Under the pieces are notes generated by a model, which made no database searches, was not told the DNA's origin, and saw only the letters and a list, made by a program, of their open reading frames with translations. DNA of 64,000 nucleotides from assembly GCA_051362555.1 (NCBI GenBank), contig CM120643.1:21084848-21148847 (forward strand), written 5' to 3'. Shown piece after piece: positions 2,542 to 55,104 of the stretch (within the stretch, counting starts at the first letter, position 1; each line of letters starts with the position of its first letter). Position numbers and translations under genes: made by a program. This DNA is from Lingula anatina (lineage: Eukaryota > Animalia > Brachiopoda).

Positions 2542-2882
2542 TAATGTCTCCTTCCAATTCGTTATGCTTTTTGTAACTGGCCTCATTAGCCTTCACATTC
2601 CAAAAGGCAATTGTTCATTAAATATAAGACCCCAGAACAGTAGTAGGCGTAAGTGGCACTGATGTCAGGCACGCCTACTGCAGCTGTTAGGGAGTAATTA
2701 AACAAATGATGTGATTAAACCATGTATTTCAACTTAATTTAGAAATATTTAAATGGCAGATGCAATATTCTGTAAGAATGTTTCATAATTTTCAGCTGTA
2801 ATTTCAGTTCTCAGGTAAAGAAAAAAAATCATGAGAAGGTACCTCTTCAGCATTGCCCTCTTTTCAACCATTTGGAATAAAG

Positions 2883-29500: not shown

Positions 29501-32500
29501 GTTTTACCTAGATTTTATTTATGATATTTTATGTAGTATTATTTATGATATTTTATGTAAAGTCTACTGAACATTTTAAAAGGATTTTAGACTTAAAATA
29601 AATTTATTATTATTAGGCACAGGAGGTCCACCAGGTACAGGAGGTCCACCAGGTACAGGAGGTCCACCAGGTACTGGAGGCCCACCAGGAACAGGAGGTC
29701 CACCAGGCACAGGAGGCCCACCAGGAACAGGAGGTCCACCAGGAACAGGAGGTCCACCAGGCACAGGAGGCCCACCAGGAACAGGAGGTCCACCAGGAAC
29801 AGGAGGTCCACCAGGCACTGGGGGCCCACCAGGTACAGGTGGTCCACCAGGAACAGGAGGTCCACCAGGCACAGGAGGTCCCCCAGGAACAGGAGGTCCA
29901 CCAGGTACAGGAGGTCCATCAGGCACTGGGGGCCCACCAGGTACAGGAGGTCCACCAGGCACAGGAGGTCCACCAGGAACAGGAGGTCCACCAGGTACAG
30001 GTGGTCCACCAGGAACAGGAGGTCCCCCAGGAACAGGAGGTCCACCAGGAACAGGAGGTCCACCAGGTACAGGAGGTCCACCAGGTACTGGAGGCCCACC
30101 AGGAACAGGAGGTCCACCAGGTACAGGAGGTCCACCAGGTACTGGAGGCCCACCAGGAACAGGAGGTCCACCAGGCACAGGAGGCCCACCAGGAACAGGA
30201 GGTCCACCAGGTACTGGAGGCCCACCAGGAACTGGAGGTCCACCAGGCACAGGAGGCCCACCAGGAACAGGAGGTCCACCAGGAACAGGAGGTCCACCAG
30301 GAACAGGAGGTCCACCAGGCACAGGAGGTCCACCAGGCACTGGAGGCCCACCAGGTACAGGAGGTCCACCAGGTACTGGAGGCCCACCAGGAACAGGAGG
30401 TCCACCAGGCACAGGAGGACCACCAGGTACTGGAGGCCCACCAGGCACAGGAGGGCCACCAGGAACAGGAGGCCCACCAGGTACAGGAGGTCCACCAGGC
30501 ACAGGAGGGCCACCAGGAACAGGAGGCCCACCAGGTACAGGAGGCCCACCAGGAACAGGAGGGCCACCAGGCACAGGAGGCCCACCAGGCACAGGAGGCC
30601 CACCAGGAACAGGAGGTCCACCAGGAACAGGAGGTCCACCAGGTACAGGTGGTCCACCAGGCACAGGAGGGCCACCAGGAACAGGAGGACCACCAGGCAC
30701 AGGAGGTCCACCAGGTACTGGAGGCCCACCAGGTACAGGAGGACCACCAGGCACAGGAGGCCCACCAGGAACAGGAGGTCCACCAGGTAATTCGCAATCA
30801 GTTGTCTGACTGCTGCAGCCACAGTCATAAATTGTTTAGTTACATCTCGATTAGATTACTGCAACTCCATTTTATACGGTTGTCCAAAGAAACAAATTGT
30901 CAGACTGCAGCACATTCAAAATATTTCGTCCAGATTATTAACTTGGACATCCACAAGCAAACACATCTCCCAAGTTTTAAAAAGTTTACACTGGCTACCT
31001 CTACAAGCCAGAATTTTATTCAAAATTTTAGTTTTTACTCACGATGCTTTTTATGGATTGGCACCAATCTACATCAATGAATTAGTTAGTCACTATGTTC
31101 CAATGCGAAATCTGCGGTCTGTAGACCAATTGCTACTCAACCCAGTAAAAATGCAATTAAAAACCTACGGTGACATATCTTTTAAAGCTGCAGGTCCAAA
31201 GGAATGGAATCTATTACCGCTGGAAATCCGAGCAATTCAGTCTACCAAAAATTTTTAAAAAGAACTCAAAACATACCTTTTTTAGGAAATATTTTGATTA
31301 ACTCTTAATTGGTTTTATCAATCTTGTATTAATTGCATTTAATTGTATGGAATAATGGCTGTTTTACCTAGATTTTATTTATGATATTTTATGTAGTATT
31401 ATTTATGATATTTTATGTAAAGTCTACTGAACATTTTAAAAGGATTTTAGACTTAAAATAAATTTATTATTATTAGGCACAGGAGGTCCACCAGGTACAG
31501 GAGGTCCACCAGGTACAGGAGGTCCACCAGGTACTGGAGGCCCACCAGGAACAGGAGGTCCACCAGGCACAGGAGGCCCACCAGGAACAGGAGGTCCACC
31601 AGGCACAGGAGGTCCACCAGGAACAGGAGGTCCACCAGGAACAGGAGGTCCACCAGGCACTGGGGGCCCACCAGGTACAGGTGGTCCACCAGGAACAGGA
31701 GGTCCCCCAGGAACAGGAGGTCCACCAGGTACAGGAGGTCCACCAGGCACAGGAGGTCCACCAGGCACAGGAGGTCCACCAGGTACTGGAGGTCCACCAG
31801 GAACAGGAGGCCCACCAGGAACAGGAGGTCCACCAGGCACAGGAGGCCCACCAGGAACAGGAGGTCCACCAGGCACAGGAGGTCCCCCAGGAACAGGAGG
31901 TCCACCAGGTACAGGAGGTCCACCAGGCACTGGGGGCCCACCAGGTACAGGAGGTCCACCAGGCACAGGAGGTCCACCAGGAACAGGAGGTCCACCAGGT
32001 ACAGGTGGTCCACCAGGAACAGGAGGTCCCCCAGGAACAGGAGGTCCACCAGGAACAGGAGGTCCACCAGGTACAGGAGGTCCACCAGGTACTGGAGGCC
32101 CAACAGGAACAGGAGGTCCACCAGGTACAGGAGGTCCACCAGGTACTGGAGGCCCACCAGGAACAGGAGGTCCACCAGGCACAGGAGGCCCACCAGGAAC
32201 AGGAGGTCCACCAGGTACAGGAGGTCCACCAGGTACTGGAGGCCCACCAGGAACAGGAGGTCCACCAGGCACAGGAGGACCACCAGGTACAGCAGGTCCA
32301 CCAGGCACAGGAGGGCCACCAGGAACAGGAGGCCCACCAGGTACAGGAGGTCCACCAGGCACAGGAGGGCCACCAGGTACAGCAGGTCCACCAGGTACTG
32401 GAGGCCCACCAGGAACAGGAGGTCCACCAGGCACAGGAGGCCCACCAGGCACAGGAGGCCCACCAGGAACAGGAGGTCCACCAGGAACAGGAGGTCCACC

Positions 32501-35500
32501 AGGTACAGGTGGTCCACCAGGCACAGGAGGTCCACCAGGAACAGGAGGTCCACCAGGCACAGGAGGTCCACCAGGTACTGGAGGCCCACCAGGAACAGGA
32601 GGTCCACCAGGCACAGGAGGACCACCAGGTACAGCAGGTCCACCAGGCACAGGAGGACCACCAGGTACAGCAGGTCCACCAGGCACAGGAGGGCCACCAG
32701 GAACAGGAGGACCACCAGGCACAGGAGGTCCACCAGGTACTGGAGGCCCACCAGGTACAGGAGGACCACCAGGCACAGGAGGCCCACCAGGAACAGGAGG
32801 TCCACCAGGTAATTCGCAATCAGTTGTCTGACTGCTGCAGCCACAGTCATAAATTGTTTAGTTACATCTCGATTAGATTACTGCAACTCCATTTTATACG
32901 GTTGTCCAAAGAAACAAATTGTCAGACTGCAGCACATTCAAAATATTTCGTCCAGATTATTAACTCGGACATCCACAAGCAAACACGTCTCCCAAGTTTT
33001 AAAAAGTTTACACTGGCTACCTCTACAAGCCAGAATTTTATTCAAAATTTTAGTTTTTACTCACGATGCTTTTTATGGATTGGCACCAATCTACATCAAT
33101 GAATTAGTTAGTCACTATGTTCCAATGCGAAATCTGCGGTCTGTAGACCAATTGCTACTCAACCCAGTAAAAATGCAATTAAAAACCTACGGTGACATAT
33201 CTTTTAAGCTGCAGGTCCAAAGAAATGGAATCCATTACCGCTGGAAATCCGAGCAATTCAGTCTACCAAAAATTTTTAAAAAGAACTCAAAACATACCTT
33301 TTTTAGGAAATATTTTGATTAACTCTTAATTGGTTTTATCCATCTTGTATTAATTGCATTTAATTGTATGGAATAATGGCTGTTTTACCTAGATTTTATT
33401 TATGATATTTTATGTAGTATTATTTATGATATTTTATGTAAAGTCTACTGAACATTTTAAAAGGATTTTAGACTTAAAATAAATTTATTATTATTAGGCA
33501 CAGGAGGTCCACCAGGTACAGGAGGTCCACCAGGTACAGGAGGTCCACCAGGTACTGGAGGCCCACCAGGAACAGGAGGTCCACCAGGCATAGGAGGCCC
33601 ACCAGGAACAGGAGGTCCACCAGGCACAGGAGGTCCACCAGGTACTGGAGGCCCACCAGGAACTGGAGGTCCACCAGGCACAGGAGGCCCACCAGGAACA
33701 GGAGGTCCACCAGGAACAGGAGGTCCACCAGGCACAGGAGGTCCACCAGGCACTGGAGGCCCACCAGGTACAGGAGGTCCACCAGGTACTGGAGGCCCAC
33801 CAGGAACAGGAGGTCCACCAGGCACAGGAGGTCCACCAGGCACAGGAGGTCCACCAGGTACTGGAGGCCCACCAGGAACAGGAGGTCCACCAGGCACAGG
33901 AGGTCCACCAGGTACAGGAGGCCCAACAGGAACAGGAGGTCCACCAGGTACAGGAGGCCCACCAGGAACAGGAGGTCCACCAGGTACAGGAGGTCCACCA
34001 GGAACAGGAGGTCCACCAGGTATTGGAGGCCCACCAGGAACAGGAGGTCCACCAGGCACAGGGGGCCCACCAGGAACAGGAGGTCCACCAGGTACAGGTG
34101 GTCCACCAGGCACAGGAGGTCCCCCAGGAACAGGAGGTCCACCAGGCACAGGAGGTCCACCAGGTACTGGAGGCCCACCAGGAACAGGAGGTCCACCAGG
34201 CACAGGAGGACCACCAGGTACAGCAGGTCCACCAGGCACAGGAGGGCCACCAGGAACAGGAGGCCCACCAGGTACAGGAGGTCCACCAGGTACAGGAGGT
34301 CCACCAGGTACTGGAGGCCCACCAGGAACAGGAGGTCCAACAGGCACAGGAGGCCCACCAGGAACAGGAGGTCCACCAGGTACAGGTGGTCCACCAGGAA
34401 CAGGAGGCCCAACAGGTACAGGAGGTCCACCAGGAACAGGAGGTCCACCAGGAACAGGAGGCCCACCAGGAACAGGAGGTCCACCAGGTACAGGAGGTCC
34501 ACCAGGTACTGGAGGCCCACCTGGAACAGGAGGTCCACCAGGCACAGGAGGCCCACCAGGAAGAGGAGGTCCACCAGGTACAGGAGGTCCACCAGGTACT
34601 GGAGGCCCACCAGGAACAGGAGGTCCACCAGGCACAGGAGGTCCACCAGGCACTGGAGGTCCACCAGGCACAGGAGGTCCACCAGGCACTGGAGGTCCAC
34701 CAGGCACAGGAGGTCCACCAGGCACTGGAGGCCCACCAGGTACAGGAGGTCCACCAGGTACTGGAGGCCCACCAGGAACAGGAGGTCCACCAGGTACAGG
34801 AGGTCCACCAGGTACTGGAGGCCCAACAGGAACAGGAGGTCCACCAGGTACAGGAGGTCCACCAGGTACTGGAGGCCCACCAGGAACAGGAGGTCCACCA
34901 GGCACAGGAGGCCCACCAGGAACAGGAGGTCCACCAGGTACAGGAGGTCCACCAGGTACTGGAGGCCCACCAGGAACAGGAGGTCCACCAGGCACAGGAG
35001 GACCACCAGGTACAGGAGGGCCACCAGGAACAGGAGGCCCACCAGGTACAGGAGGTCCACCAGGCACAGGAGGGCCACCAGGTACAGCAGGTCCACCAGG
35101 TACTGGAGGCCCACCAGGAACAGGAGGTCCACCAGGCACAGGAGGCCCACCAGGCACAGGAGGCCCACCAGGAACAGGAGGTCCACCAGGAACAGGAGGT
35201 CCACCAGGTACAGGTGGTCCACCAGGCACAGGAGGTCCACCAGGAACAGGAGGTCCACCAGGCACAGGAGGTCCACCAGGTACTGGAGGCCCACCAGGAA
35301 CAGGAGGTCCACCAGGCACAGGAGGACCACCAGGTACAGCAGGTCCACCAGGCACAGGAGGACCACCAGGTACAGCAGGTCCACCAGGCACAGGAGGGCC
35401 ACCAGGAACAGGAGGACCACCAGGCACAGGAGGTCCACCAGGTACTGGAGGCCCACCAGGTACAGGAGGACCACCAGGCACAGGAGGCCCACCAGGAACA

Positions 35501-38500
35501 GGAGGTCCACCAGGTAATTCGCAATCAGTTGTCTGACTGCTGCAGCCACAGTCATAAATTGTTTAGTTACATCTCGATTAGATTACTGCAACTCCATTTT
35601 ATACGGTTGTCCAAAGAAACAAATTGTCAGACTGCAGCACATTCAAAATATTTTGTCCAGATTATTAACTCGGACATCCACAAGCAAACACGTCTCCCAA
35701 GTTTTAAAAAGTTTACACTGGCTACCTCTACAAGCCAGAATTTTATTCAAAATTTTAGTTTTTACTCACGATGCTTTTTATGGATTGGCACCAATCTACA
35801 TCAATGAATTAGTTAGTCACTATGTTCCAATGCGAAATCTGCGGTCTGTAGACCAATTGCTACTCAACCCAGTAAAAATGCAATTAAAAACCTACGGTGA
35901 CATATCTTTTAAAGCTGCAGGTCCAAAGAAATGAAATCTATTACCGCTGGAAATCCGAGCAATTCAGTCTACCAAAAATTTTTAAAAAGAACTCAAAACA
36001 TACCTTTTTTAGGAAATATTTTGATTAACTCTTAATTGGTTTTATCCATCTTGTATTAATTGCATTTAATTGTATGGAATAATGGCTGTTTTACCTAGAT
36101 TTTATTTATGATATTTTATGTAGTATTATTTATGATATTTTATGTAAAGTCTACTGAACATTTTAAAAGGATTTTAGACTTAAAATAAATTTATTATTAT
36201 TAGGCACAGGAGGTCCACCAGGTACAGGAGGTCCACCAGGTACAGGAGGTCCACCAGGTACTGGAGGCCCACCAGGAACAGGAGGTCCACCAGGCACAGG
36301 AGGCCCACCAGGAACAGGAGGTCCACCAGGCACAGGAGGTCCACCAGGTACTGGAGGCCCACCAGGAACTGGAGGTCCACCAGGCACAGGAGGCCCACCA
36401 GGAACAGGAGGTCCACCAGGAACAGGAGGTCCACCAGGCACAGGAGGTCCACCAGGCACTGGAGGCCCACCAGGTACAGGAGGTCCACCAGGCACTGGAG
36501 GCCCACCAGGAACAGGAGGTCCACCAGGCACAGGAGGTCCACCAGGCACAGGAGGTCCACCAGGTACTGGAGGCCCACCAGGAACAGGAGGTCCACCAGG
36601 CACAGGAGGTCCACCAGGTACAGGAGGCCCACCAGGAACAGGAGGTCCACCAGGTACAGGAGGCCCACCAGGAACAGGAGGTCCACCAGGTACAGGAGGT
36701 CCACCAGGAACAGGAGGTCCACCAGGTACTGGAGGCCCACCAGGAACAGGAGGTCCACCAGGCACAGGGGGCCCACCAGGAACAGGAGGTCCACCAGGTA
36801 CAGGTGGTCCACCAGGCACAGGAGGTCCCCCAGGAACAGGAGGTCCACCAGGCACAGGAGGTCCACCAGGTACTGGAGGCCCACCAGGTACAGGAGGTCC
36901 AAGAGGCACAGGAGGACCACCAGGTACAGCAGGTCCACCAGGCACAGGAGGGCCACCAGGAACAGGAGGCCCACCAGGTACAGGAGGTCCACCAGGTACA
37001 GGAGGTCCACCAGGTACTGGAGGCCCACCAGGAACAGGAGGTCCAACAGGCACAGGAGGCCCACCAGGAACAGGAGGTCCACCAGGTACAGGTGGTCCAC
37101 CAGGAACAGGAGGCCCAACAGGTACAGGAGGCCCACCAGGAACAGGAGGTCCACCAGGTACAGGAGGTCCACCAGGTACTGGAGGCCCACCAGGAACAGG
37201 AGGTCCACCAGGCACAGGAGGTCCACCAGGCACTGGAGGTCCACCAGGCACAGGAGGTCCACCAGGCACTGGAGGTCCACCAGGCACAGGAGGTCCACAA
37301 GGCACTGGAGGCCCACCAGGTACAGGAGGTCCACCAGGTACTGGAGGCCCACCAGGAACAGGAGGTCCACCAGGCACAGGAGGTCCACCAGGCACAGGAG
37401 GTCCACCAGGTACTGGAGGCCCACCAGGAACAGGAGGTCCACCAGGCACAGGAGGTCCACCAGGTACAGGAGGCCCACCAGGAACAGGAGGTCCACCAGG
37501 TACAGGAGGCCCACCAGGAACAGGAGGTCCACCAGGTACAGGAGGTCCACCAGGAACAGGAGGTCCACCAGGTACTGGAGGCCCACCAGGAACAGGAGGT
37601 CCACCAGGCACAGGTGGCCCACCAGGAACAGGAGGACCACCAGGTACAGGTGGTCCACCAGGCACAGGAGGTCCCCCAGGAACAGGAGGTCCACCAGGCA
37701 CAGGAGGTCCACCAGGTAATGGAGGCCCACCAGGAACTGGAGGTCCACCAGGAACAGGAGGACCACCAGGTACAGCAGGTCCACCAGGCACAGGAGGGCC
37801 ACCAGGAACAGGAGGCCCACCAGGTACAGGAGGTCCACCAGGTACAGGAGGTCCACCAGGTACTGGAGGCCCACCAGGAACAGGAGGTCCACCAGGCACA
37901 GGAGGACCACCAGGTACAGCAGGTCCACCAGGCACAGGAGGGCCACCAGGAACAGGAGGCCCACCAGGTACAGGAGGTCCACCAGGTACAGGAGGTCCAC
38001 CAGGTACTGGAGGCCCACCAGGAACAGGAGGTCCACCAGGCACAGGAGGACCACCAGGTACAGCAGGTCCACCAGGCACAGGAGGGCCACCAGGCACAGG
38101 AGGCCCACCAGGTACAGGAGGTCCACCAGGTACAGGAGGTCCACCAGGTACTGGAGGCCCACCAGGAACAGGAGGTCCAACAGGCACAGGAGGCCCACCA
38201 GGAACAGGAGGTCCACCAGGTACAGGTGGTCCACCAGGAACAGGAGGCCCAACAGGTACAGGAGGTCCACCAGGAACAGGAGGTCCACCAGGAACAGGAG
38301 GCCCACCAGGAACAGGAGGTCCACCAGGTACTGGAGGCCCACCTGGAACAGGAGGTCCACCAGGCACAGGAGGCCCACCAGGAACAGGAGGTCCACCAGG
38401 TACAGGAGGTCCACCAGGTACTGGAGGCCCACCAGGAACAGGAGGCCCACCAGGAACAGGAGGTCCACCAGGTAGTTCGCAATCAGTTGTCTGACTCTGC

Positions 38501-41500
38501 TGCAGCCACAGTCATAATTTTTTTTTTTTTTTTTTTTTATTGACATCACAAAACAAAACATACATTTTTCACACTAAACACATATTACAACATATATGCA
38601 ACAGACACAAACTAGCTTACAGTAGTCTCATTGGACATTAACAGCACAAGGGAGTGACAGAATACGTTGCACAAAATAACAGAAGTAATAGTATACAGTA
38701 CACATAACACAAACTGATTAACATATATCGTAACATATAAACAAACAAACCAGCTTATTATCATATATAAGTCACATCGGATTCTACATATTACAAACGT
38801 ACTATTTATACCACAGTCACAATATATGATATTATGCCGGTTGTCGGGAATAACACAAAGCACCACTCACTTACAAGATCATACAGAACAATTAAGCGTA
38901 CAAAAGTCTCCACTTAGTTGTGAACTCAGGTACACATAACAAGTTGCTAAACATTACAAACCAACATATATCAAGTATCCACGAACAATCTGGTGCAACA
39001 CAAAAGACTGACAGTACGGAAAGATATTAGACATGCACAATTGGCTATGACTCCAAACAGTAAGAGATTGTCATACATTTACACTCAACTCGTATTGTAT
39101 CATTCTAAGTAAGGCTAAGTATTAAATTGTGTAAAATCTAGGTACATAGTCATAAATTGTTTAGTTACATCTCGATTAGATTACTGCAACTCCATTTTAT
39201 ACAGTTGTCCAAAGAAACAAATTGTCAGACTGCAGCACATTCAAAATATTTCGGCCAGATTATTAACTCGGACATCCACAAGCAAACACGTCTCCCAAGT
39301 TTTAAAAAGTTTACACTGGCTACCTCTACAAGCCAGAATTTTATTCAAATTTTTAGTTTTTACTCACGATGCTTTTTATGGATTGGCACCAATCTACATC
39401 AATGAATTAGTTAGTCACTATGTTCCAATGCGAAATCTGCGGTCTGTAGACCAATTGCTACTCAACCCAGTAAAAATGCAATTAAAAACCTACGGTGACA
39501 TATCTTTTAAAGCTGCAGGTCCAAAGGAATGGAATCTATTACCGCTGGAAATCCGAGCAATTCAGTCTACCAAAAATTTTTAAAAAGAACTCAAAACATA
39601 CCTTTTTTAGGAAATATTTTGATTAACTCTTAATTGGTTTTATCAATCTTGTATTAATTGCATTTAATTGTATGGAATAATGGCTGTTTTACCTAGATTT
39701 TATTCATGATATTTTATGTAGTATTATTTATGATATTTTATGTAAAGTCTACTGAACATTTTAAAAGGATTTTAGACTTAAAATAAATTTATTATTATTA
39801 GGCACAGGAGGTCCACCAGGTACAGGAGGTCCACCAGGCACAGGAGGTCCACCAGGTACAGGAGGCCCACCAGGAACAGGAGGTCCACCAGGTACAGGAG
39901 GTCCACCAGGAACAGGAGGTCCACCAGGTACTGGAGGCCCACCAGGAACAGGAGGTCCACCAGGCACAGGTGGCCCACCAGGAACAGGAGGTCCACCAGG
40001 TACAGGTGGTCCACCAGGCACAGGAGGTCCCCCAGGAACAGGAGGTCCACCAGGTACTGGAGGCCCACCAGGAACAGGAGGTCCACCAGCCACAGGAGGA
40101 CCACCAGGTACAGCAGGTCCACCAGGCACAGGAGGGCCACCAGGAACAGGAGGCCCACCAGGTACAGGAGGTCCACCAGGTACAGGAGGTCCACCAGGTA
40201 CTGGAGGCCCACCAGGAACAGGAGGTCCACCAGGCACAGGAGGCCCACCAGGAACAGGAGGTCCACCAGGTACAGGTGGTCCACCAGGAACAGGAGGCCC
40301 ACCAGGTACAGGAGGTCCACCAGGAACAGGAGGTCCACCAGGAACAGGAGGCCCACCAGGAACAGGAGGTCCACCAGGTACAGGAGGTCCACCAGGTACT
40401 GGAGGCCCACCAGGAACAGGAGGTCCACCAGGAACAGGAGGTCCACCAGGAACAGGAGGTCCACCAGGCACAGGAGGCCCACCAGGTACAGGAGGTCCAC
40501 CAGGAACAGGAGGTCCACCAGGAACAGGAGGTCCACCAGGTACAGGAGGTCCACCAGGAACAGGAGGCCCACCAGGTACAGGAGGTCCACCAGGAACAGG
40601 AGGTCCACCAGGAACAGGAGGTCCACCAGGAACAGGAGGTCCACCAGGTACTGGAGGCCCACCAGGTAGAGGAGGTCCACCAGGCACTGGAGGCCCACCA
40701 GGTACAGGAGGTCCACCAGGCACAGGAGGTCCACCAGGTACTGGAGGCCCACCAGGTACTGGAGGTCCACCAGGCACAGGAGGCCCACCAGGAACAGGAG
40801 GTCCACCAGGTAATTCGCAATCAGTTGTCTGACTCTGCTGCAGCCACAGTCATAAATTGTTTAGTTACATCTCGATTAGATTACTGCAACTCCATTTTAT
40901 ACAGTTGTCCAAAGAAACAAATTGCCAGACTGCAGCACATTCAAAATATTTCGGCCAGATTATTAACTCGGACATCCACAAGCAAACACGTCTCCCAAGT
41001 TTTAAAAAGTTTACACTGGCTACCTCTACAAGCCATAATTTTATTCAAATTTTTAGTTTTTACTCACGATGCTTTTTATGGATTGGCACCAATCTACATC
41101 AATGAATTAGTTAGTCACTATGTTCCAATGCGAAATCTGCGGTCTGTAGACCAATTGCTACTCAACCCAGTAAAAATGCAATTAAAAACCTACGGTGACA
41201 TATCTTTTAAAGCTGCAGGTCCAAAGGAATGGAATCTATTACCGCTGGAAATCCGAGCAATTCAGTCTACCAAACATTTTTAAAAAGAACTCAAAACATA
41301 CCTTTTTTAGGAAATATTTTGATTAACTCTTTATTGGTTTTATCAATCTTGTATTAATTGCATTTAATTGTATGGAATAATGGCTGTTTTACCTAGATTT
41401 TATTTATGATATTTTATGTAAAGTCTACTGAACATTTTAAAAGGATTTTAGACTTAAAATAAATTTATTATTATTAGGCACAGGAGGTCCACCAGGCACA

Positions 41501-44500
41501 GGAGGTCCACCAGGAACAGGAGGTCCACCAGGCACAGGAGGTCCACCAGGAACAGGAGGTCCACCAGGTACAGGAGGTCCACCAGGAACAGGAGGTCCAC
41601 CAGGCACAGGAGGTCCACCAGGTACTGGAGGTCCACCAGGCACAGAAGGTCCACCAGGAACAGGAGGTCCACCAGGCACAGGAGGTCCACCAGGCACAGG
41701 AGGTCCACCAGGCACTGGAGGCCCACCAGGTACAGGAGGTCCACCAGGTACTGGAGGCCCACCAGGAACAGGAGGTCCACCAGGCACAGGAGGTCCACCA
41801 GGCACTGGAGGCCCACCAGGAACAGGAGGTCCACCAGGTACTGGAGGCCCACCAGGAACAGGAGGGCCACCAGGCACAGGAGGACCACCAGGTACTGGAG
41901 GCCCACCAGGAACAGGAGGTCCACCAGGTACAGGAGGCCCACCAGGAACAGGAGGTCCACCAGGTAATTCGCAATCAGTTGTCTGACTGCTGCAGCCACA
42001 GTCATAAATTGTTTAGTTACATCTCGATTAGATTACTGCAACTCCATTTTATACGGTTGTCCAAAGAAACAAATTGCCAGACTGCAGCACATTCAAAATA
42101 TTTCGTCCAGATTATTAACTCGGACATCCACAAGCAAACACGTCTCCCAAGTTTTAAAAAGTTTACACTGGCTATCTCTACAAGCCAGAATTTTATTCAA
42201 AATTTTAGTTTTTACTCACGATGCTTTTTATGGATTGGCACCAATCTACATCAATGAATTAGTTAGTCACTATGTTCCAATGCGAAATCTGCGGTCTGTA
42301 GACCAATTGCTACTCAACCCAGTAAAAATGCAATTAAATACCTACGGTGACATGTGTTTTAAAGCTGCAGGTCTAAAGGAATGGAATCTATTACCGCTGG
42401 AAATCCGAGCAATTCAGTCTACCAAACATTTTAAAAAAGAACTCAAAACATACCTTTTTTAGGAAATATTTTGATGAACTCTTAATTGATTTTATCAATC
42501 TTGTATTAATTGCATTTAATTGTATGGAATAATGGCTGTTTTACCTAGATTTTATTTATGATATTTTATGTAAAGTCTACTGAACATTTTAAAAGGATTT
42601 TAAAAGGACTTGAAATAAATTTATTATTAGGCACAGGAGGTCCACCAGGTACTGGAGGTCCACCAGGTACAGGAGGTCCACCAGGTACTGGAGGCCCACC
42701 AGGAACAGGAGGTCCACCAGGCACAGGAGGCCCACCAGGAACAGGAGGTCCACCAGGCACAGGAGGTCCACCAGGTACTGGAGGCCCACCAGGAACAGGA
42801 GGTCCACCAGGAACAGGAGGTCCACCAGGTACTGGAGGCCCACCAGGAACAGGAGGTCCACCAGGTACAGGAGGTCCACCAGGAACAGGAGGTCCACCAG
42901 GAACAGGAGGTCCACCAGGTACTGGAGGCCCACCAGGAACAGGAGGTCCACCAGGCACAGGAGGACCACCAGGTACAGCAGGTCCACCAGGAACAGGAGG
43001 TCCACCAGGCACAGGAGGTCAACCAGGCACAGGAGGTCCACCAGGCACAGGAGGTCCACCAGGTACTGGAGGCCCACCAGGAACAGGAGGTCCACCAGGC
43101 ACAGGAGGTCCACCAGGTACTGGAGGCCCACCAGGTACAGGAGGTCCACCAGGCACAGGAGGTCCACCAGGCACAGGAGGCCCACCAGGAACAGGAGGTC
43201 CACCAGGTACAGGAGGTCCACCAGGAACAGGAGGTCCACCAGGTACTGGAGGCCCACCAGGAACAGGAGGTCCACCAGGCACAGGAGGCCCACCAGGAAC
43301 AGGAGGTCCACCAGGTACAGGAGGTCCACCAGGAACAGGAGGTCCACCAGGAACAGGAGGTCCACCAGGTACTGGAGGCCCACCAGGAACAGGAGGTCCA
43401 CCAGGAACAGGAGGTCCACCAGGAACAGGAGGTCCACCAGGCACAGGAGGTCCACCAGGCACAGGAGGTCCACAAGGTACTGGAGGCCCACCAGGTACAG
43501 GAGGTCCACCAGGCACAGGAGGTCCACCAGGCACAGGAGGTCCACCAGGTACTGGAGGCCCACCAGGAACAGGAGGTCCACCAGGCACAGGAGGCCCACC
43601 AGGAACAGGAGGTCCTCCAGGTACAGGAGGTCCACCAGGAACAGGAGGTCCACCAGGAACAGGAGGTCCACCAGGTACTGGAGGCCCACCAGGAACAAGA
43701 GGTCCACCAGGCACTGGGGGCCCACCAGGAACAGGAGGTCCATCAGGCACAGGAGGTCCACCAGGTACTGGAGGTCCACCAGGAACAGGAGGTCCACCAG
43801 GTACAGGTGGTCCACCAGGAACAGGAGGTCCCCCAGGAATAGGAGGTCCACCAGGAACAGGAGGTCCACCAGGTACTGGAGGCCCACCAGGCACAGGAGG
43901 TCCACCAGGCACAGGAGGTCCACCAGGCACAGGAGGTCCACCAGGTACTGGAGGCCCTCCAGGAACAGGAGGTCCACCAGGCACAGGAGGCCCACCAGGA
44001 ACAGGAGGTCCACCAGGTACAGGTGGTCCACCAGGCACAGGAGGTCCCCCAGGAACAGGAGGTCCACCAGGCACAGGAGGTACCCCAGGAACAGGAGGTC
44101 CACCAGGCACAGGAGGCCCACCAGGAACAGGAGGTCCACCAGGTAATTCGCAATCAGTTGTCTGACTGCTGCAGCCACAGTCATAAATTGTTTAGTTACA
44201 TCTCGATTAGATTACTGCAACTCCATTTTATACGGTTGTCCAAAGAAACAAATTGCCAGACTGCAGCACATTCAAAATATTTCGGCCAGATTATTAACTC
44301 GGACATCCACAAGCAAACACGTCTCCCAAGTTTTAAAAAGTTTACACTGGCTACCTCTACAAGCCAGAATTTTATTCAAATTTTTAGTTTTTACTCACGA
44401 TGCTTTTTATGGATTGGCACCAATCTACATCAATGAATTAGTTAGTCACTATGTTCCGATGCGAAATCTGCGGTCTGTAGACCAATTGCTACTCAACCCA

Positions 44501-47343
44501 GTAAAAATGCAATTAAAAACTTACGGTGACATGTCTTTTAAAGCTGCAGGTCCAAAGGAATGGATTCTATTACCGCTGGAAATCCGAGCAATTCAGTCTA
44601 CCAAACATTTTAAAAAAGAACTCAAAACATACCTTTTTTAGGAAATATTTTGATTAACTCTTAATTGGTTTTATAAATCTTGTATTAATTGCATTTAATT
44701 GTATGGAATAATGGCTGTTTTACCTAGATTTTATTTATGATATTTTATGTAGTATTATTTATGATATTTTATGTAAAGTCTACTGAACATTTTAAATGGA
44801 TTTTAGACTTAAAATAAATTTATTATTATTAGGCACAGGAGGTCCACCAGGTACAGGAGGTCCACCAGGTACTGGAGGTCCACCAGGTACAGGTGGTCCA
44901 CCAGGAACAGGAGGCCCACCAGGCACAGGAGGTCCACCAGGAACAGGAGGTCCACCAGGTACAGGAGGTCCACCAGGTACTGGAGGTCCACCAGGTACAG
45001 GAGGTCCACCAGGTACTGGAGGCCCACCAGGAACAGGAGGTCCACCAGGCACAGGAGGCCCACCAGGAACAGGAGGTCCACCAGGTACAGGAGGTCCACC
45101 AGGTACTGGAGGCCCACCAGGAACAGAAGGCCCACCAGGAACAGGAGGTCCACCAGGCACTGGAGGTCCACCAGGAACAGGAGGCCCACCAGGCACAGGA
45201 GGTCCACCAGGAACAGGAGGTCCACCAGGCACAGGAGGTCCACCAGGCACTGGAGGCCCACCAGGCAAAGGAGGTCCACCAGGAACAGGAGGTCCACCAG
45301 GCACAGGAGGTCCACCAGGTACAGGTGGTCCACCAGGAACAGGAGGCCCACCAGGGAGAAGAGGTCCACCAGGGACAGGAGGTCCACCCGGACAGAAGGG
45401 AATGAAAGGTTAAATTTACCCATGTTCAATACGAAATATATATTTTATAATTTACCTAGAAAAGCACTCAGAGAGCACAGACCTCCGCCAAGGGAGTAAA
45501 GTCTCCATTCAATGTCGTTTCACCCTTAAATTTTTGATATTTTTTTTATTCTTGATTGATTATTGATCCGGATCACCATCAAAAACTAATCACCTGTTCC
45601 TTGGCCCACTTCCCTCAGTTCCTGAAATTTTATCAAAATCGGTCAATAACTCAGTTTTTTTTAAATTTTTTATTATTGATTATTGATTGAGTATTGATCC
45701 AGATTACCACCAAAAACTATTCACTTGTAAGTTAACCCATTTCTGACCTACCCTGAAAATGCCATCGAAATCCATCCATAACTTTTTGAGTTATATTGAT
45801 GACAAACAAACAAACAAACAGGGGTGAAAACATAACCTCCTTGGCGGAGGTAAAAATATTATTTCTTTCAAGTAATAATGATAGTAACTAAAGCCAATGG
45901 CTGCAAAAAATGGATTAATTCATTGGGAAGATTTCTTGAAAATTACAGTTTAGGTGTTTTGGCCTATTATTGCATTTGTTTTTACTCATCCCTCTTTTTT
46001 AACACTGATGAAAATGATATTTGAACTTGTTTATAGAGTTTTGATATATTTTGTTTAATCAAAGATTTAACCTTTTAAGGAATGAAAGGACTTCCTGGAG
46101 GGGGAAAGGGATCTAAGGGAATGAAAGGTAAGACGGTGAACAAGATAGACGATACAAGCTGCCCAAATTACAAACACAATGCAGTTGAATACAAAATTAG
46201 AATTCACTTTCTTTAAATGAATTCACTTTCTTCGTATGAGATCTATATTTCACAGTAAAAACATTGCAAACAACTCACAGAAATACATTTTCTATTTTAC
46301 CACAAAAATGGCAGTTAAAGCAATTATTCTTAAATCTGTGCTCGTCTTCAGACCATGTGACCTCCATACAGGTAGATGGCTATAAAAAACAAACTTTCTA
46401 GAAAAAAATCCATTGACTAAATTTGAATGTAGAAATGGATTTATTAACCATTGGTAAGTATGGGAAAATTGTTTACCCCGGGGAAATTCATTATTTGACC
46501 AAAATGAACAGTTGTTATCCCTTTAATTATGCATCTGCTTTATTATTCTGTCTTTAAAGCACTTTCCCTTCAAAAGACAAAAGGCTGCGCCGTGCTAGAT
46601 TTTATTAATAGTTACCACATTGTTCAATAGGATGGACGGTCCGAAGCGTATGAAAATACAGGCAAGCGTGTACACTGATTCTATTGTGAGGAGCGCCGCC
46701 ATTGGTAAAAAAGGAGATAATGTGGGTGTATAGAGACATATGTCGAAGACACGTGTTTTCTCCCGTCCTGTAACGTCCATAACGCATGGGCAAAGTGACC
46801 ATGACTCCTTCTACCGGGTTCACAGATTTTCCCTTGATTTCCACAGATGTGTATCTGGCTTATTCTTGACAATTTTGTCTTATGCCCCGCAAGATTTTTT
46901 TACTTGGAATCAATAGCCTTTTGCAGCTAGATGAGTAGATATTGACTTCTTTTGTTTACTGAAGAGCTTGGCATATTTCATCACTCGGCCGGTCTCCGGT
47001 ATAGAGTAGACCCTAAACACATATAATAAGTAATTTATGGGCAGTGTTGAAGTCAATCAGATGACACACGTTTTGTATCCATCGCATAAAGCACGGAGCG
47101 GCAAATTGTCTTTTGACGGGAAAGTGCTTCAAATCTTGATGAAATTTAAGGGTGCATGCTAAATAGCTGTCAGCCGAGCAGACAAGAAAGTTAATTACCC
47201 CCTTACAGCTTGTAGTAGGCGGGACGGACATTTAAGCCGGATTATCTGACAGTAATCTAGTGAGACTCCCCGCGGGGATAGATCGATCTAAAAGGACTGG
47301 GAATACAGCCTAAGTCACCGAATTAGAGCTATTACCCTATTGG

Positions 47344-47382
<39 letters not shown>

Positions 47383-50300: not shown

Positions 50301-50598
50301 CATATAACCTCTAGCTTTATTTTTCAATTCAGGTATGAAAGGCGACAGAGGGATGCCAGGTTTGAAAGGGATGAAAGGCATGAAAGGCAACAGAGGGACA
50401 GGTTCCAAGGGAATGAAGGGCGATAGAGGGATGCCGGGTTTCAATGGGATTAAAGGGATGAAAGGCGACAAAGGGAGAAGAGGTAACAGAGGGATGAAAG
50501 GCAACAGAGGGATGAAAGGCAACAAAGGGAGGAGAGGTAACAGAGGGATGAAGGGCTCCAAAGGATCCCCAGGTAGGATAATCAATTAAATTTGTTTT

Positions 50599-50647
<49 letters not shown>

Positions 50648-52369
50648 TATACGTACACATACGTAAACATGTGCCAGTAGATACACACAACTGAATTAGC
50701 ACACACACACACACACACGCACGCACGCACGCACGCACGCACGCATACCATTCGGCACGAAATCAAATCACTGCGTACCAAAATCGAAAGCACATTTCAT
50801 TCCGTTTTTCAGGAATGATACTAATCCTACCAAACAGAGGCCGGACGACCCCAGCTGGTCTACCATTTGGAACAGGCCGTGGTACCTTAGGAGGCTTCCA
50901 AACCAATGCAGGTTTCGGTACAACTGCGAGCGCCGGAAACACTCCGCGTTTTGGACAGAACAACAGGGGGCTCACCATATTTAGGAACCAAAATTTCGGT
51001 GAGTTTGGTTTGTTTTCGGTTAAGATTCATATTTTCCCCCGAACCGGTTCTGACTGCCGTGGTTAACGCACTGGCCTGGCAGATCCGGGGGTGGGGGAGG
51101 GGGTTACAAGCCTAACTGACTTTACCGCACATCGTTCGCATACTTTTTTTCAATTTTGAAGGGTTGAGGAGGAGGATCATTGATTGCTTTGAAGACAACA
51201 TCGATATTTTTACTTTGTCAGTTGTTCATTCCCCATCTCTTGGTCAGACAGATTATAAACACTTTTTTTCTATTATTTTCGCTTTTTATACACTTACTGT
51301 GTACATCGTAAATGTGTAATTGTATAGAGTAGCTGGAGTTAGAGTGTGCAACAGCTGAACATGGATACAATAACATTGCTTTCGTTCTTTTGTCAGCTGC
51401 AACCCGTTCATCCGTCTTAAATACAGGGATCTTCGGACAGAACTTTGGACAAAACTTTAGACTAAACCTTGGACAGAACTTTAGACTTAACGTTGGAGGG
51501 ACCACAACGAGAGGACCAAATATTTTCAGTAAGTATTAAAAAAAGTATGAAAGGTGATAGGCCGAATTTTCGGAGCGATTCGTCGAATGATATATCATGT
51601 TCAATCTCTTTTAGATATCTTTACACTAGAGAACAACATCATGCTTATACCAGTATATGTATCCAGTAAAATCCGTCCTCTATAGTACTATACCTTTAGT
51701 AGGTCTAGTTCTAACAACCTAATATAAGTTTTTCATTATTATACGTACGGCATGAAAAGCTGTACTGAGTTAGCTTTTGTCAAATCTAATAACACAATTA
51801 GAAAAACATGTTTCTACTGGATTTATAATTTATTATTCAGATTGTTGAGTTTCTTTAATATGTACATTTTTCTTCTTTGGTATATACTTATTTCTTCTGT
51901 CGCTTGTAAATATTTATTGCATCTGTATTTACAAGATCGACTTAAGTGCAACTGATTTAATTTCACTCGCGGTGTTATTTTCTTGTTTGTTTGTTTCGAT
52001 GTAAAGGTAGTATACATTTCATAGTGTCAAACGGACTGTTACCGATTTTACTCACTCACATGTATTTCCGTTTCTCCAGGATTCCCCCTATTTAACAGAC
52101 TACAATCTGAGTCTAAGAGTATCGATAGAATTGACCAAAATCAAAAGTCACTGAAAACAGATGTGAACAACGTTGTCGCAGTAACAATCACGCTGGCGGT
52201 AGCGGTCGTGGTGGTGCTGCTGGTGGTGATTGCTGTCGTGTGGAGAAGAGCAGCAAGGGCCAGGGAGACATTACGGGAGACATTACGACAGGAAATTTCC
52301 CAGCTACAAGAACAAATAAACAATGAATCTGCTACACATAACAGCGACGGCGACAGTTCACTAGTGTAA
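2883..52369 (+). CDS. Multi-exon gene for a giant collagen-like (Gly-Thr-Gly-Gly-Pro-Pro)n protein with a C-terminal transmembrane anchor, about 8,500 aa; 23 exons in the model, 5' end unresolved
   Basis: All 23 exons have AG acceptors, all but the terminal exon have GT donors, and they join in phase 1 into one open frame ending at TAA 52367-52369. The repeat exons after the first are exact multiples of 18 nt. Unit-to-unit variation is mostly synonymous in the GTGGPP frame. Confidence 0.85.
9247..10308 (+). CDS. Repeat exon 2 (59 units)
   Basis: ttattag|GCACA ... CCAG|gtaatt; 1062 nt = 59x18. Confidence 0.8.
10999..11826 (+). CDS. Repeat exon 3 (46 units)
   Basis: Same splice signals; 828 nt = 46x18. 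Confidence 0.8.
12517..13470 (+). CDS. Repeat exon 4 (53 units)
   Basis: Same splice signals; 954 nt = 53x18. Confidence 0.8.
14160..14807 (+). CDS. Repeat exon 5 (36 units)
   Basis: Same splice signals; 648 nt = 36x18. Confidence 0.8.
15498..15677 (+). CDS. Repeat exon 6 (10 units)
   Basis: Same splice signals; 180 nt = 10x18. Confidence 0.8.
15678..16369 (+). pseudogene. Least-decayed intronic L2 copy (161-codon ORF2 C-terminal fragment still open, 15693..16178)
   Basis: Keeps the 2 nt (gactCTg) that most other copies have lost; no RT catalytic core. Confidence 0.8.
16370..17197 (+). CDS. Repeat exon 7 (46 units; near-identical to exons 3 and 9)
   Basis: Same splice signals; 828 nt. Confidence 0.8.
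17422..22938. mobile_element. 5.5-kb TIR DNA transposon (CCC termini, 2-bp CA TSD; CMC/EnSpm-like, no transposase seen)
   Basis: TIRs of ~35 bp (CCCAGATAGCAA...); CCGACGTCGG subterminal repeats. Intron length 6209 = 690 + 5517 + 2 against the empty sister introns. Confidence 0.92.
19626..21929. mobile_element. Nested 2.3-kb CCC-terminal TIR element (AT duplication) with subterminal minisatellites
   Basis: at|CCCAGCAGGCAAATCAAC ... GTTGAGTGCCCGCTGGG|at; ~110-bp repeats at 19640-20260 and ~60-bp repeats at 21590-21910, rich in TCAAC/GTTGA. Confidence 0.85.
23407..24468 (+). CDS. Repeat exon 8 (59 units; very similar to exon 2)
   Basis: Same splice signals; 1062 nt. Confidence 0.8.
25159..25986 (+). 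CDS. Repeat exon 9 (46 units)
   Basis: Same splice signals; 828 nt. Confidence 0.8.
26677..28926 (+). CDS. Repeat exon 10 (125 units)
   Basis: Same splice signals; 2250 nt = 125x18. Confidence 0.8.
29617..30786 (+). CDS. Repeat exon 11 (65 units)
   Basis: Same splice signals; 1170 nt = 65x18. Confidence 0.8.
31477..32808 (+). CDS. Repeat exon 12 (74 units)
   Basis: Same splice signals; 1332 nt = 74x18. Confidence 0.8.
33498..35513 (+). CDS. Repeat exon 13 (112 units)
   Basis: Same splice signals; 2016 nt = 112x18. Confidence 0.8.
36204..38471 (+). CDS. Repeat exon 14 (126 units)
   Basis: Acceptor ttattag; variant donor CCAG|gtagtt; 2268 nt = 126x18. Confidence 0.78.
38518..39147 (-). mobile_element. 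630-bp poly(A)-tailed retroposed fragment (3' UTR-like) with 8-bp TSD AGTCATAA
   Basis: Poly(T) at 38518-38538 on + strand (AATAAA running into poly(A) on -). TSD at 38510-38517 and 39148-39155. Intron length 1330 = 692 + 630 + 8. Confidence 0.88.
39802..40809 (+). CDS. Repeat exon 15 (56 units; one Gly->Ala at 40089-40091)
   Basis: Same splice signals; 1008 nt = 56x18. Confidence 0.8.
41478..41963 (+). CDS. Repeat exon 16 (27 units)
   Basis: Same splice signals; 486 nt = 27x18. Confidence 0.8.
42631..44142 (+). CDS. Repeat exon 17 (84 units)
   Basis: Same splice signals; 1512 nt = 84x18; ORF 42558..44165. Confidence 0.8.
44833..45408 (+). CDS. Repeat exon 18; the repeat grades into unique collagen sequence (GKG, GRR, GQKGMKG)
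   Basis: ORF 44796..45413; 576 nt = 32x18; non-LINE donor AAAG|gttaaa. Confidence 0.85.
45456..45853 (-). mobile_element. Helentron/DINE-1-like non-autonomous element
   Basis: Subterminal inverted repeat acctccgccaagg / ccttggcggaggt, terminal hairpin acctccttggcggaggt, (ACAA)n microsatellite; partial second copy at about 59075-59246. Confidence 0.6.
46080..46127 (+). CDS. Small collagen exon [17 protein letters not shown]
   Basis: ttttaag|GA ... AAAG|gtaaga; 48 nt, phase 1-1. Confidence 0.85.
47344..47398. repeat. (CAT)n(AAT)n microsatellite
   Basis: Directly visible. Confidence 0.95.
50333..50572 (+). CDS. Basic Lys/Arg/Met-rich collagen exon ([12 protein letters not shown]...GSKGSPG)
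   Basis: ttcaattcag|GT ... CCAG|gtagga; 240 nt; ORF 50335..50589. Confidence 0.9.
50602..50746. repeat. (CT)n and (CA)n/(CACG)n microsatellites in an intron
   Basis: Directly visible. Confidence 0.95.
50813..50998 (+). CDS. Non-collagenous G/T/F/N-rich exon ([20 protein letters not shown]...RNQNF)
   Basis: tttttcag|GA ... TTCG|gtgagt; 186 nt, phase 1-1; ORF 50815..51066. Confidence 0.85.
51397..51528 (+). CDS. Exon [44 protein letters not shown]
   Basis: ttcttttgtcag|CT ... TTCA|gtaagt; 132 nt, phase 1-1, no stops. Confidence 0.85.
52080..52369 (+). CDS. Terminal coding exon: heptad-like stalk, TM helix ([24 protein letters not shown]), RR stop-transfer, short tail ending -DSSLV*
   Basis: tttctccag|GA; phase-1 join places ORF 52163..52369 in frame. 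Confidence 0.85.
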
Positions 52370-54761
52370 GAGGTCATATTACTCAATCATACACTGTATG
52401 AGGGATTTGTGTCACTACCAGTTTTGACATACGAAAGCAAAAAAAAAAAAAAAAAATCAGTTTTGAAGAACAAAGCTCCATGTGTTATAGGAAAACGTGT
52501 CTCAGATATACGGGCATATGCAAACTAACCTCTGCTGTAAAGACGAGCAATCAAATATCGTAGGTGGATGCATAATTATCGAATAAAAGCTCAGGCAGCC
52601 AAATATATAACTGTATGCATTGCAGTCTCCGTTAAAGAAAATAAATTTGTGCATTACTAAAACCACAGTCTCTCTGCAGTAGTTTATTACATGCACTTTA
52701 TTAAATAACCTCGAATTGGACATTTCAATATAAGAAGAGTGCATATAATTGATTTGATACGTCCAATTATTCTAGAATATATTCATCGGAAAATGGAACA
52801 AAAGAAAAAAAGCAAGTAGGCCTAAGCAACGAAATGAAACTCCGAATAACAGAGTGCGGTTTTATTTGCAACTGTATTAACTGCACACAATACCAGTACA
52901 ACTGTATCTGTGTCCTTATCTTGTGGGTTATAAAACTTTTCCCACCCCACTTCCTTCATATAAACAAAGTTTAATTAATAAAAAAGGACATGCTATATAG
53001 GCCTACGTAGGCCAATACAATCATTCGAATACATGTAGGCCTACATGCAGCCACATGCGTACAGTCACTCGGCATTTACTTTTGGGGGGCCTATAACACA
53101 TCAAAATAGATAAAATATACAATAAAAGAAAAAATAAATAAAATTATATACACGATGAGAGAAAAAATAAAACTGCACGACAAAACAGGAAAAATGACAA
53201 CAATTGTGTTAGTTGTGCCAGGCTATTCGAAAATAAACGCATTCTCCATTTTGCCACCGTGTCGTAAAAGAGCCTCTGTGAGGAAGGAGACCTAATGCTT
53301 ACCATGACAGAAATATCGTATTGCAAGTACCTGAACAACCACACAGACGTTCCTGATATAACATACATTACGCCATAAACAAAATAAATATAAATACACT
53401 TACGACCAGTTTCAGTTGTGTAGGCCTACTTCCGTCCTCGTCCGTAAGTACCCGCCTCTGATATTCCTCGTCCGTAAGTTCCCGCCTCTGATATTATAAA
53501 TGAGTGTGCATGACAACGGGTATCAGTAGCTAACAGTTCAGTGCATTGCTTTCTATCTTCTATCTTGGTTTCTATTAAATATGAGTGAACATAAATATAG
53601 GTATATACAGATACCTATGTCAAGATTGGCTTAGTTAATTATTTTGCCAATAGATGGCGGTACCAGTATTGGCCCCATGCATGGTCACAGAGCAGCCCGT
53701 GAGTTAAAGTATCGAGATCAGTATAAGTAACGAACAATTCATTGAGGTACCCCCTATTGTGAATTGGTTAATACCAAAAAATTATTAAAACGTATTTGTG
53801 AGGTATTGCTGCAGTATACGGTGGTCGGTGTTTTACAGTGTCAAGATTAGCTTAGTTTGTGACTTTGCCAATAGATGGCGAAACGAGTTACTTTGTAAGT
53901 GATACTGGAAGGTATTTAGTTGTTATGGACTACAATAATCTTGTTTTTTGTATATCCGCTCTCGTCTCTTGTATTTTATGGGGTAAAATTGCATCTTAGA
54001 TAATTTTTCAACTCAGAAGCATACTTGCACTATAAAGTACTGCACTCCTTTTTAACGTTTTTGGTGACCTCTTTGATATGTAAGGTATATAAGTGCTCCC
54101 GCTTGAAAGATATGGGTGGACATAACTGAAAAATAACTGCAAAAGGTCGTGATTGGCTTTTCAGAAGTGCGATGGTGCGGAAAGGCGGGTGAGGGTGATT
54201 AATCAAATAAATAAAATAAAATAAAATAAAATAAAATAAAATAAAAAACCCGACACACTGTTGAGTTGCTAGTTGACCATCTTTTCCCAGTTATTTATTC
54301 GGGCCAGGACCATAAATAGAAAGAATGGTGAACGCATGAAACCTCGTACTATAAGTATACATAGATACAAACAAACAAACAAACATACATACATACATAC
54401 ATACATGCATACATGTGGTTCGCAGTAAGTGATTTTAATTTAAAAATGTTACACTGGTCATAAGTAAAGCAATACCTTGGGATATTCAAAACCTTCTAGT
54501 ACAGTATCGCGGTCGTTATTTGTTATTCCAATGGGGTTGTCTTTTTCTTTCATATTCCATGAATATTTTGTGGGATAGGACATTTCTATTAAAATACACC
54601 AATACAACACACTGTACTGTAAATAATGCGAATACCTTCGTTAACAAAATGGTTCTAAAAATAAACATACCTCTTGGCTAGGGTCCAGTGGATCATATAG
54701 CTCTTAATTTAATACTGAGAATGATTTTATTTTAGAACATTCTGTTTTAGAGAAGGGGTGC

Positions 54762-55104
54762 CTAAAAAGTTATGGAGATCGTGCTTTTATAATCTACGCC
54801 CCAAGAGTGTGGAATGGTCTACCAAATTTTATTAGGAAAACGGAAGACTTTGACAATTTTAAATCTCTTTTAAAGACCCACTTTTTTAATTCAGTCTATA
54901 TCTCTTAGATTTTATTTTAATATATATGTTTTTTTTTTTTTTTTTAATAAGATTGATTTTTAGTAGTGTAAATTTTAAATGGTTTCCAATGAGAGTTTAT
55001 GATTAAAATATTGTAGTCATTTTAATGATTTTAGTATATTAGCCATTATTGTAAGGCGCCTTGAGATAGAATGTAAGGCGCCATATAAGAATCTTATTAT
55101 TATT
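54762..55104 (+). mobile_element. 3' end of a different L2-clade LINE
   Basis: Translates LKSYGDRAFIIYAPRVWNGLPNFIRKTEDFDNFKSLLKTHFF; ends gtaaggcgccttgag...aaggcgccatataagaatc(tta)n. Confidence 0.8.

Follow-up and report, generated by a model that had tools for sequence, protein, structure and literature searches.

Can a collagen be held in the membrane by its C-terminus? The question is raised by a short exon (52080–52369) in a 64,000-nucleotide (nt) stretch of the genome of the brachiopod Lingula anatina (assembly GCA_051362555.1, contig CM120643.1, positions 21,084,848 to 21,148,847, forward strand; hereafter the window, numbered from its first base), which follows a long series of collagen-like exons and encodes a hydrophobic segment close to its stop codon. 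We propose, with a rough probability of 0.58, that these exons together encode a giant, collagen-like type I protein of the cell surface, which would trimerise at its membrane end and form a glycosylated rod that may reach ∼2.3 micrometres. The proposal starts from four observations: a 23-exon model that is open throughout, the order of its parts, selection on the Gly residues that keep the collagen register, and a further five genes that are laid out alike.

Layout of the predicted protein

Translation of 52082–52369 (P0001) gives 30 polar residues, a 24-residue hydrophobic stretch (residues 31–54), the basic motif RRAARAR and a tail ending in SSLV before a TAA codon (52367–69), bearing out the features that a sequence-only reading of this exon had picked out as those of a type I protein. 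Basic residues are more frequent behind the hydrophobic stretch than ahead of it (4 versus 2 Lys/Arg within 10 residues, 6 versus 3 within 15), and its 19-residue Kyte-Doolittle (KD) maximum of 3.27 is the top value across the entire gene model. A 19-residue hydropathy window above 2.5 occurs in 22 of the 243 stop-free frames of at least 60 amino acids (aa) in the window, and apart from this exon these comprise 18 frames antisense to collagen exons and three of microsatellite or AT-repeat origin. The exon has a good acceptor (a pyrimidine tract and CAG at 52077–79), is in phase 1 as is every exon upstream of it, and is followed by AATAAA at 52582 and 52640. It probably closes the coding sequence of a giant collagen-like surface protein that crosses the membrane once in type I orientation, the stop codon of the exon being a predicted one because a candidate donor (GT at 52366, GTAAGA) falls within the last codon. 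Pfam matches of the exon were all under cut-off. A glycosylphosphatidylinositol anchor was rejected, as 41 polar residues follow the hydrophobic stretch, and so was the start of a separate type II gene, given the stop at 52367, the phase-1 acceptor and the lack of an ATG ahead of the transmembrane (TM) segment. The tail also carries a 12-base tandem duplication (52264–52287, ETLR twice), which shifts the heptad register.

Joined in order, 18 (Gly-Thr-Gly-Gly-Pro-Pro)n exons, the two collagen exons rich in Lys, the pair that encodes the linker and the TM exon (Table 1) yield a chain of 8,544 aa with a single stop at its end, and all 22 introns of the model lie in phase 1 with GT–AG ends. Collagen occupies residues 18–8342, followed by a low-complexity linker of 137 aa with 13 Arg, the TM segment (8480–8503) and a tail of 41 aa. 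Gly accounts for 48% of the chain (4,127 of 8,544 residues), Cys is absent throughout, and the basic collagen block holds 32 Lys/Arg against 3 Asp/Glu in 119 aa. The triplets form runs of 2,377 (the longest unbroken one), 368, 10 and 19, with breaks of only one to three residues; at the rise of the collagen helix, 0.286 nm per residue, the main helix would have a nominal rod length of 2,354 nm.

At the other end of the model, the ATG at 2831 is preceded by an in-frame stop and opens a basic n-region, a hydrophobic core of 10–12 residues and a small residue at −1. We called it signal-peptide-like by a simple n/h/c rule of our own, which was satisfied at 145 of 53,160 control positions (0.27%). 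A predicted type I layout, from a signal-peptide-like start to a C-terminal hydrophobic segment with ∼2,770 Gly-X-Y triplets bracketed between them, is complete inside the window.

Table 1. Features of the predicted gene, in window coordinates
Feature	Position	Strand	Basis
Start codon and signal-peptide-like N-terminus (21 aa), in frame with collagen	2831..2893	+	in-frame stop just 5', n/h/c rule
18 repeat exons, 180–5,731 nt each, total 24,739 nt, ∼2,740 Gly-X-Y triplets, nearly all GTG and GPP	2831..45408	+	
First of 17 near-identical phase-1 introns	8562..9246	+	intron alignment
Small collagen exon, AAG acceptor, skippable in frame, zero RNA reads	46080..46127	+	
Lys/Arg/Met-rich, Pro-poor collagen exon	50333..50572	+	Pfam Collagen E 5e-18
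Linker exon 1, opens with short hydrophobic stretch directly behind last triplet	50813..50998	+	
Linker exon 2, Gly/Asn/Phe/Gln-rich	51397..51528	+	
Putative lumenal neck, ∼3.5 heptads leading into TM	52080..52171	+	heptad test and AlphaFold2
Predicted transmembrane helix, 24 aa	52172..52243	+	translation and hydropathy
Basic stop-transfer residues, predicted cytosolic tail of 41 aa, stop codon	52244..52369	+	translation
First two AATAAA poly(A) signal candidates	52582..52645	+	sequence

Three further observations concern the ends of the gene and its surroundings. A short ATG-opened frame at 2564–2648 ends at a strong donor and is possibly a 5' untranslated (UTR) exon with an upstream open reading frame (ORF). 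The donor at 45408–45411 (GTTAAA) is weak, and read-through there meets an immediate stop, which would give a secreted form that lacks the anchor. Downstream of the gene lies an inverted duplication of ∼500 bases (58518–59030 and 59830–60420) with identical frames on both strands.

Relatives with the same order of parts

Scanning metagenome_contigs with a DNA pattern of four repeats returned 15 loci; the repeat pattern gave no match in genome_contigs, nor did a three-repeat pattern in viral_contigs. Locus L007, an unrelated Gly/Pro-rich frame on a contig of 70% GC, was dropped from the family. Six loci (L003, L004, L009, L010, L011, L015) are genomic exon fragments; in L010 and L011 the repeat exon ends in a Lys/Met block that nearly matches exons 18–19 of the L. 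anatina window. The other eight are intron-free and represent four distinct genes (L001; L002/L014; L005/L006/L013; L008/L012). Protein searches with the repeat returned generic collagens (238 matches in one, three in another), and the larger search supplied a fifth distinct relative, P0020, the only family member among the 120 matches listed.

In all five relatives the collagen is followed by a linker, a hydrophobic segment, four or five Lys/Arg and a tail of 20–33 residues. A membrane segment such as the sequence-only reading proposed recurs in the family: a hydrophobic segment lies near the C-terminus of all eight intron-free loci and of P0020 (21-residue KD 2.08–2.37 in six of the eight loci, 1.89 in L002 and L014, and 2.99 in P0020); such a late segment, with a KD of at least 2.0, was found in two of 122 other collagens retrieved. 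The start is hydrophobic in each of the four distinct relatives whose N-terminus is present, and on five single intron-free contigs (L001, L005, L006, L008, L013) a signal-peptide-like start and a TM segment occur together. The type I topology claimed earlier thereby gains support from two sides, the start at 2831 and the recurrence of this layout in five other genes, and we regard this predicted topology as well supported. The window gene, L001 and P0020 further share the short hydrophobic stretch behind the last triplet, with linkers of 134, 133 and 134 residues respectively, and the distance from collagen to TM segment is just 27–29 residues in L002 and L008. The Y-position Gly of the repeat is replaced by Ser, Ala, Val, Gln or Glu in relatives, while the Gly at every third position stays fixed.

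Some relatives carry additional modules before, inside or after the rod (L005:136–1815, L008:110–2692, L015:1604–1909), of CBM14-like, C-type-lectin-like and kringle-like appearance. The CBM14-like domains of L005 and the C-type-lectin-like domains of L008 fall just below the Pfam cut-off; L008 also matches the lectin CEL-I and shows, by eye, a kringle-like Cys pattern. We read these modules as probable domain shuffling on a common repeat scaffold.

Searches for closer relatives of the TM exon were negative: a protein homologue search (lengths 168–2000) found nothing, a search in 1.84 billion sequences gave no match, and none of 596 matches to a pattern of the exon was confirmed. Exact look-up of eight relative ORFs in the sequence collection found none present, the ESM Atlas gave only scores of 0.80 or less, and matches in the Protein Data Bank were generic collagens. 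Searches of the open-access literature by title and abstract turned up no description of such a family, which subscription literature may hold, and none appears in the matched passages of an echinoderm matrix review (PMC10381214) or of a sea-anemone matrisome paper (PMC12549020). The repeat and the layout together define an apparently undescribed family.

Selection on the repeat and origin of its introns

Over the 1,369 hexapeptide units of the repeat, third codon positions vary by up to 63% and first and second positions are nearly fixed. The two register-Gly codons show a single amino acid change and the Y-position Gly shows 39 changes of four kinds, as counted over copies that are not independent events; the constraint on register Gly is the one that marks the collagen superfamily. 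In 24,739 nt of repeat exons we found no frameshift, and in 696 columns of 15 short introns seven distinct indels, five of them frame-breaking. Because the introns have gained frame-breaking indels and the exons none, repeat exons 2–18 appear to be translated; if they are under selection as protein, as it seems, the repeated introns have to be spliced. Antisense coding of the repeat was rejected, the variation being synonymous in the plus frame only. Within the repeat exons (2831–45408) there are also 450 donor-like CAG|GTAC sites, every one in phase 1, and so any cryptic splicing there would shorten the rod in frame.

The 17 introns that separate these exons (8562–44832) are 97.4–100% identical in pairs (mean 98.5%). 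One frame of the repeated intron reads as the C-terminus of a reverse transcriptase, followed by an (ATT)n tail, and we take the intron to be the 3' fragment of a 5'-truncated long interspersed nuclear element (LINE) of L2/CR1 type in sense orientation; a Pfam search of it gave no match. Intron 2 retains ∼165 open codons, and a diverged copy of the element lies at 54753–54884. Donor (CAG|GT) and acceptor (AG|GC) sit in a duplicated AGG, the arrangement that would result had both splice sites come from a target-site duplication. Such an origin of splice sites is known for DNA-type introners, and single retrotransposon-derived introns are also noted (passages of PMC11282704). Blocks 8947–12516 and 23106–26676 match at 99.2%, from which we conclude that the duplications are recent, and the exact repeat length could differ between alleles or reflect assembly. 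The 17 introns look like a single LINE-derived intron that was amplified along with the repeat exons, and they may exemplify an intron that was gained from a retrotransposon and then multiplied.

Two introns carry insertions of their own. That in intron 7 (17423–22938, 5.5 kb) has inverted ends and an apparent 2-base target duplication, encloses a nested element with related ends at about 19626–21930, and is presumably EnSpm/CACTA-like. That in intron 14 (38516–39148) starts with a run of T and has a 7-base direct repeat at its flanks, as an antisense retroposon would.

Competing explanations, known collagens and significance

Several results weigh against a giant type I membrane collagen. The repeated introns have an A/T-rich acceptor whose pyrimidine tract is poor, and Gly in the Y position destabilises triple helices. 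No orthologue of the window gene was found in protein searches, and its post-collagen region has no significant similarity to those of the relatives when set against shuffles (p 0.07–0.78); with neither linkers nor tails alignable beyond shuffles, what unites the family is its repeat and the order of parts. The gap between helix and TM segment is 137 residues in the window gene, and neck heptads are significant in only two of six genes (not in L001, L002, L005 or P0020). Eight raw-read RNA runs mapped to the 3' end (45360–53500 and 50250–52650) contain no splice junction and 0–4 exon reads per run, and the reads of runs X3 and X6 on the TM exon fit only partially (90–99% alike, none over 52356–52436), for which reason they may come from a paralogue or a divergent allele. 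Nearly all reads in the larger mapping are taken by interspersed repeats in introns 18–19 (45465–45855, 46229–46526, 47150–47320); the bins that contain the few reads from 50250 to 52650 overlap exons or the 3' UTR. By bin arithmetic, run X4 fits one spliced pair, with ∼215 bases for the exon 22 bin and 71 for the one where the TM exon begins, and one pair of run X8 would be placed on exons 20 and 21. In these RNA samples the gene is nearly silent, and we infer splicing of the TM exon to the collagen exons from phase, frame and selection.

Near-silence would also suit a reading in which the LINE copies are never spliced, a secreted 1,917-aa chain comes from exon 1 alone or the gene is decaying, and the TM exon is an orphan. 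Read-through of each repeat exon stops after seven codons, and the array is young, as the mean identity of its introns indicates. Against this, exons 2–18 have stayed free of frameshifts and stops while the introns gained their five frame-breaking indels, register Gly has been kept throughout, the four unique downstream exons are intact and in phase, and trace reads fall on exons 20–23; we hold such a gene to be improbable. Less credible still is a type I protein whose repeat stays a single-chain, mucin-like polyproline-II brush with no triple helix. The Gly content of 48%, with Gly at every second Y position, and the poor Pfam Collagen score of the pure repeat (E 0.29) would suit such a brush, but only the Gly at every third position is fixed, in the window gene and in its relatives, and the repeat continues in register into the ordinary collagen block. 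The main alternative, itself unlikely, is a shed precursor, in which the TM segment and neck only nucleate folding and carry the chain through secretion before the rod is cut in the linker and becomes part of a cuticle, an egg coat or an adhesive matrix. The linker is long, of low complexity and rich in Arg, read-through of the weak donor at 45408 would release an anchor-less form, and type II membrane collagens are shed by furin (according to passages of PMC4678570). The model has no R-x-K/R-R site, however, its only three RxxR motifs lying in the basic collagen block (two) and the cytosolic tail, and the gap between helix and membrane is short in L002 and L008.

The membrane end bears on two further claims of the sequence-only reading, heptads on both sides of the TM segment and a functional tail. 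Ahead of the membrane the heptads hold up: in segment 7–30 all five large hydrophobic residues fall at a/d positions (shuffle p 0.004, moment p 0.01–0.03), and the necks of L008/L012 also beat shuffles (p 0.004). The cytosolic heptads do not (p 0.06–0.6). AlphaFold2, run on a single chain and single sequence, models the TM exon as one helix (residues 2–86) with the last nine residues as coil (mean predicted local distance difference test score 83); trimer prediction for P0001 scored 0.29 against a mark of 0.32 and is counted neither way. A lumenal juxtamembrane coiled coil is plausible as the trimer nucleus. As to the tail, a class I PDZ ligand was supposed to tie it to a cortical scaffold, for example at microvillar tips, with the cytosolic coiled coil helping. 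S-L-V-COOH fits the class I pattern and the modelled coil would be compatible with it, but among 2,471 random frames that end in a stop, 104 (4.2%) finish with S/T-x-V/I/L and 504 (20%) with a motif of any PDZ class, rates that make the motif alone weak evidence. No S/T-x-V/I/L ending occurs in the five distinct relatives (TIIA, QNVV, ITQY, KAIV, RHR), which are family members and not proven orthologues; no read covers the stop, the candidate donor lies in the last codon, and nothing points to microvilli. The motif is not conserved among these relatives, and the cortical link, unsupported as it stands, has in our judgement a slim chance. Terminal Val in three of the six family tails, and two terminal aliphatic residues in four, fit a general export signal, which we favour over the PDZ link. 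In human type I tails terminal Val is over-represented (145 of 984) and is reported to bind Sec24 or GRASP55/65 as a forward-transport signal that is not always effective (passages of PMC3779271).

Membrane-associated collagens whose triple helices are interrupted (MACITs) are, as outlined in passages of PMC4678570, type II proteins with an N-terminal anchor, a conserved Cys-containing C-terminus, interrupted triple-helical regions and N-to-C folding. The window model resembles collagens XIII, XXIII and XXV and COL-99 of Caenorhabditis elegans in its single TM segment, collagenous ectodomain and helical neck by the membrane, but has a signal-peptide-like start, its only TM segment at residues 8480–8503 of 8,544, no Cys motif or indeed any Cys, and more than ten times the length. 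It works like a membrane collagen, then, but departs from MACITs, so far as these passages describe them, in topology and in Cys. It also lacks the C-terminal COLFI propeptide of fibrillar collagens; what it has are the marks of a type I single-pass protein, a signal peptide by our own rule and one TM segment whose positive flank lies towards the C-terminus. Class A scavenger receptors, ectodysplasin and colmedins combine a type II anchor with a C-terminal SRCR, TNF, lectin or olfactomedin domain, none of which was found above the Pfam cut-off in five exon translations (Lectin_N reached 21 bits versus 28.3). Another parallel is an engineered procollagen in which a TM segment replaced the C-propeptide (Bulleid et al., 1997, as cited in passages of PMC11304992); there, too, a membrane anchor at the C-terminus stands in for a trimerisation domain, but it is a laboratory construct, whereas the window gene would belong to a natural family in which a linker separates helix from membrane.

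Cuticle collagens of annelids (Riftia pachyptila) also have a very long, Thr-rich triple helix and a proposed role as a surface coat, but are about one-third Gly and have globular domains, with no TM segment mentioned in the passages matched (PMC11766948). The window gene agrees with them in its long helix but not in its 48% Gly or its headless rod. Annelid cuticle collagens have Thr in the stabilising Y position; here it is in X. Streptococcal Scl1/Scl2 and Bacillus BclA are collagen stalks on cell surfaces, with a C-terminal anchor in Scl and a Thr-glycosylated filament in BclA, but they are prokaryotic, intron-free and much shorter. In the spider flagelliform silk Flag, repeat exons alternate with highly homogenised introns; Flag, unlike the window gene, is a secreted silk and not a collagen, and the repeated intron here looks LINE-derived.

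Taken together, our preferred reading is that of a giant type I collagen-like surface protein, and the odds lean slightly towards a fuller version of it: an undescribed family of invertebrate membrane collagens of type I, with a glyco-rod of (Gly-Thr-Gly-Gly-Pro-Pro)n that folds from C to N and carries exchangeable lectin or chitin-binding tips, of which the window gene would be an extreme, headless, 2.3-micrometre member that reached its length as a repeat exon and its LINE-born intron were duplicated together 17 times. The signal peptide would route the chain into the endoplasmic reticulum (ER), and the TM segment with its basic flank would stop transfer and leave 41 residues in the cytosol. 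TM segment and lumenal neck would gather three chains, and the helix would zip from C to N as in fibrillar collagens and opposite to type II membrane collagens. TM and coiled-coil domains are nucleation centres in other collagens, and known transmembrane collagens fold N-to-C (passages of PMC11304992). Pro in the Y position would be hydroxylated and ∼1,370 X-position Thr would be O-glycosylated, the product being a filament shaped like a bottle brush, part of an apical coat or cuticle, that has no head in the window gene and CBM14-like or C-type-lectin-like tips in relatives. The terminal Leu-Val would act as a general forward-transport signal and not as a conserved cortical PDZ anchor, and tandem duplication of the repeat exon plus its intron would have lengthened the rod.

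In the papers cited here, animal membrane collagens are type II proteins with folding from N to C. A natural type I family, if true, would supply the topology missing among them and a direct in vivo test of a C-terminal membrane anchor as a substitute for the C-propeptide. Type I collagen has ∼350 triplets (passages of PMC11304992); a chain of 8,544 residues with 2,377 unbroken triplets raises the question of how a tethered rod of micrometre length is exported from the ER. The repeat, at 48% Gly, probes the rules of helix stability, and the gene would make it possible to date an intron that was gained from a retrotransposon and then amplified together with its exon.

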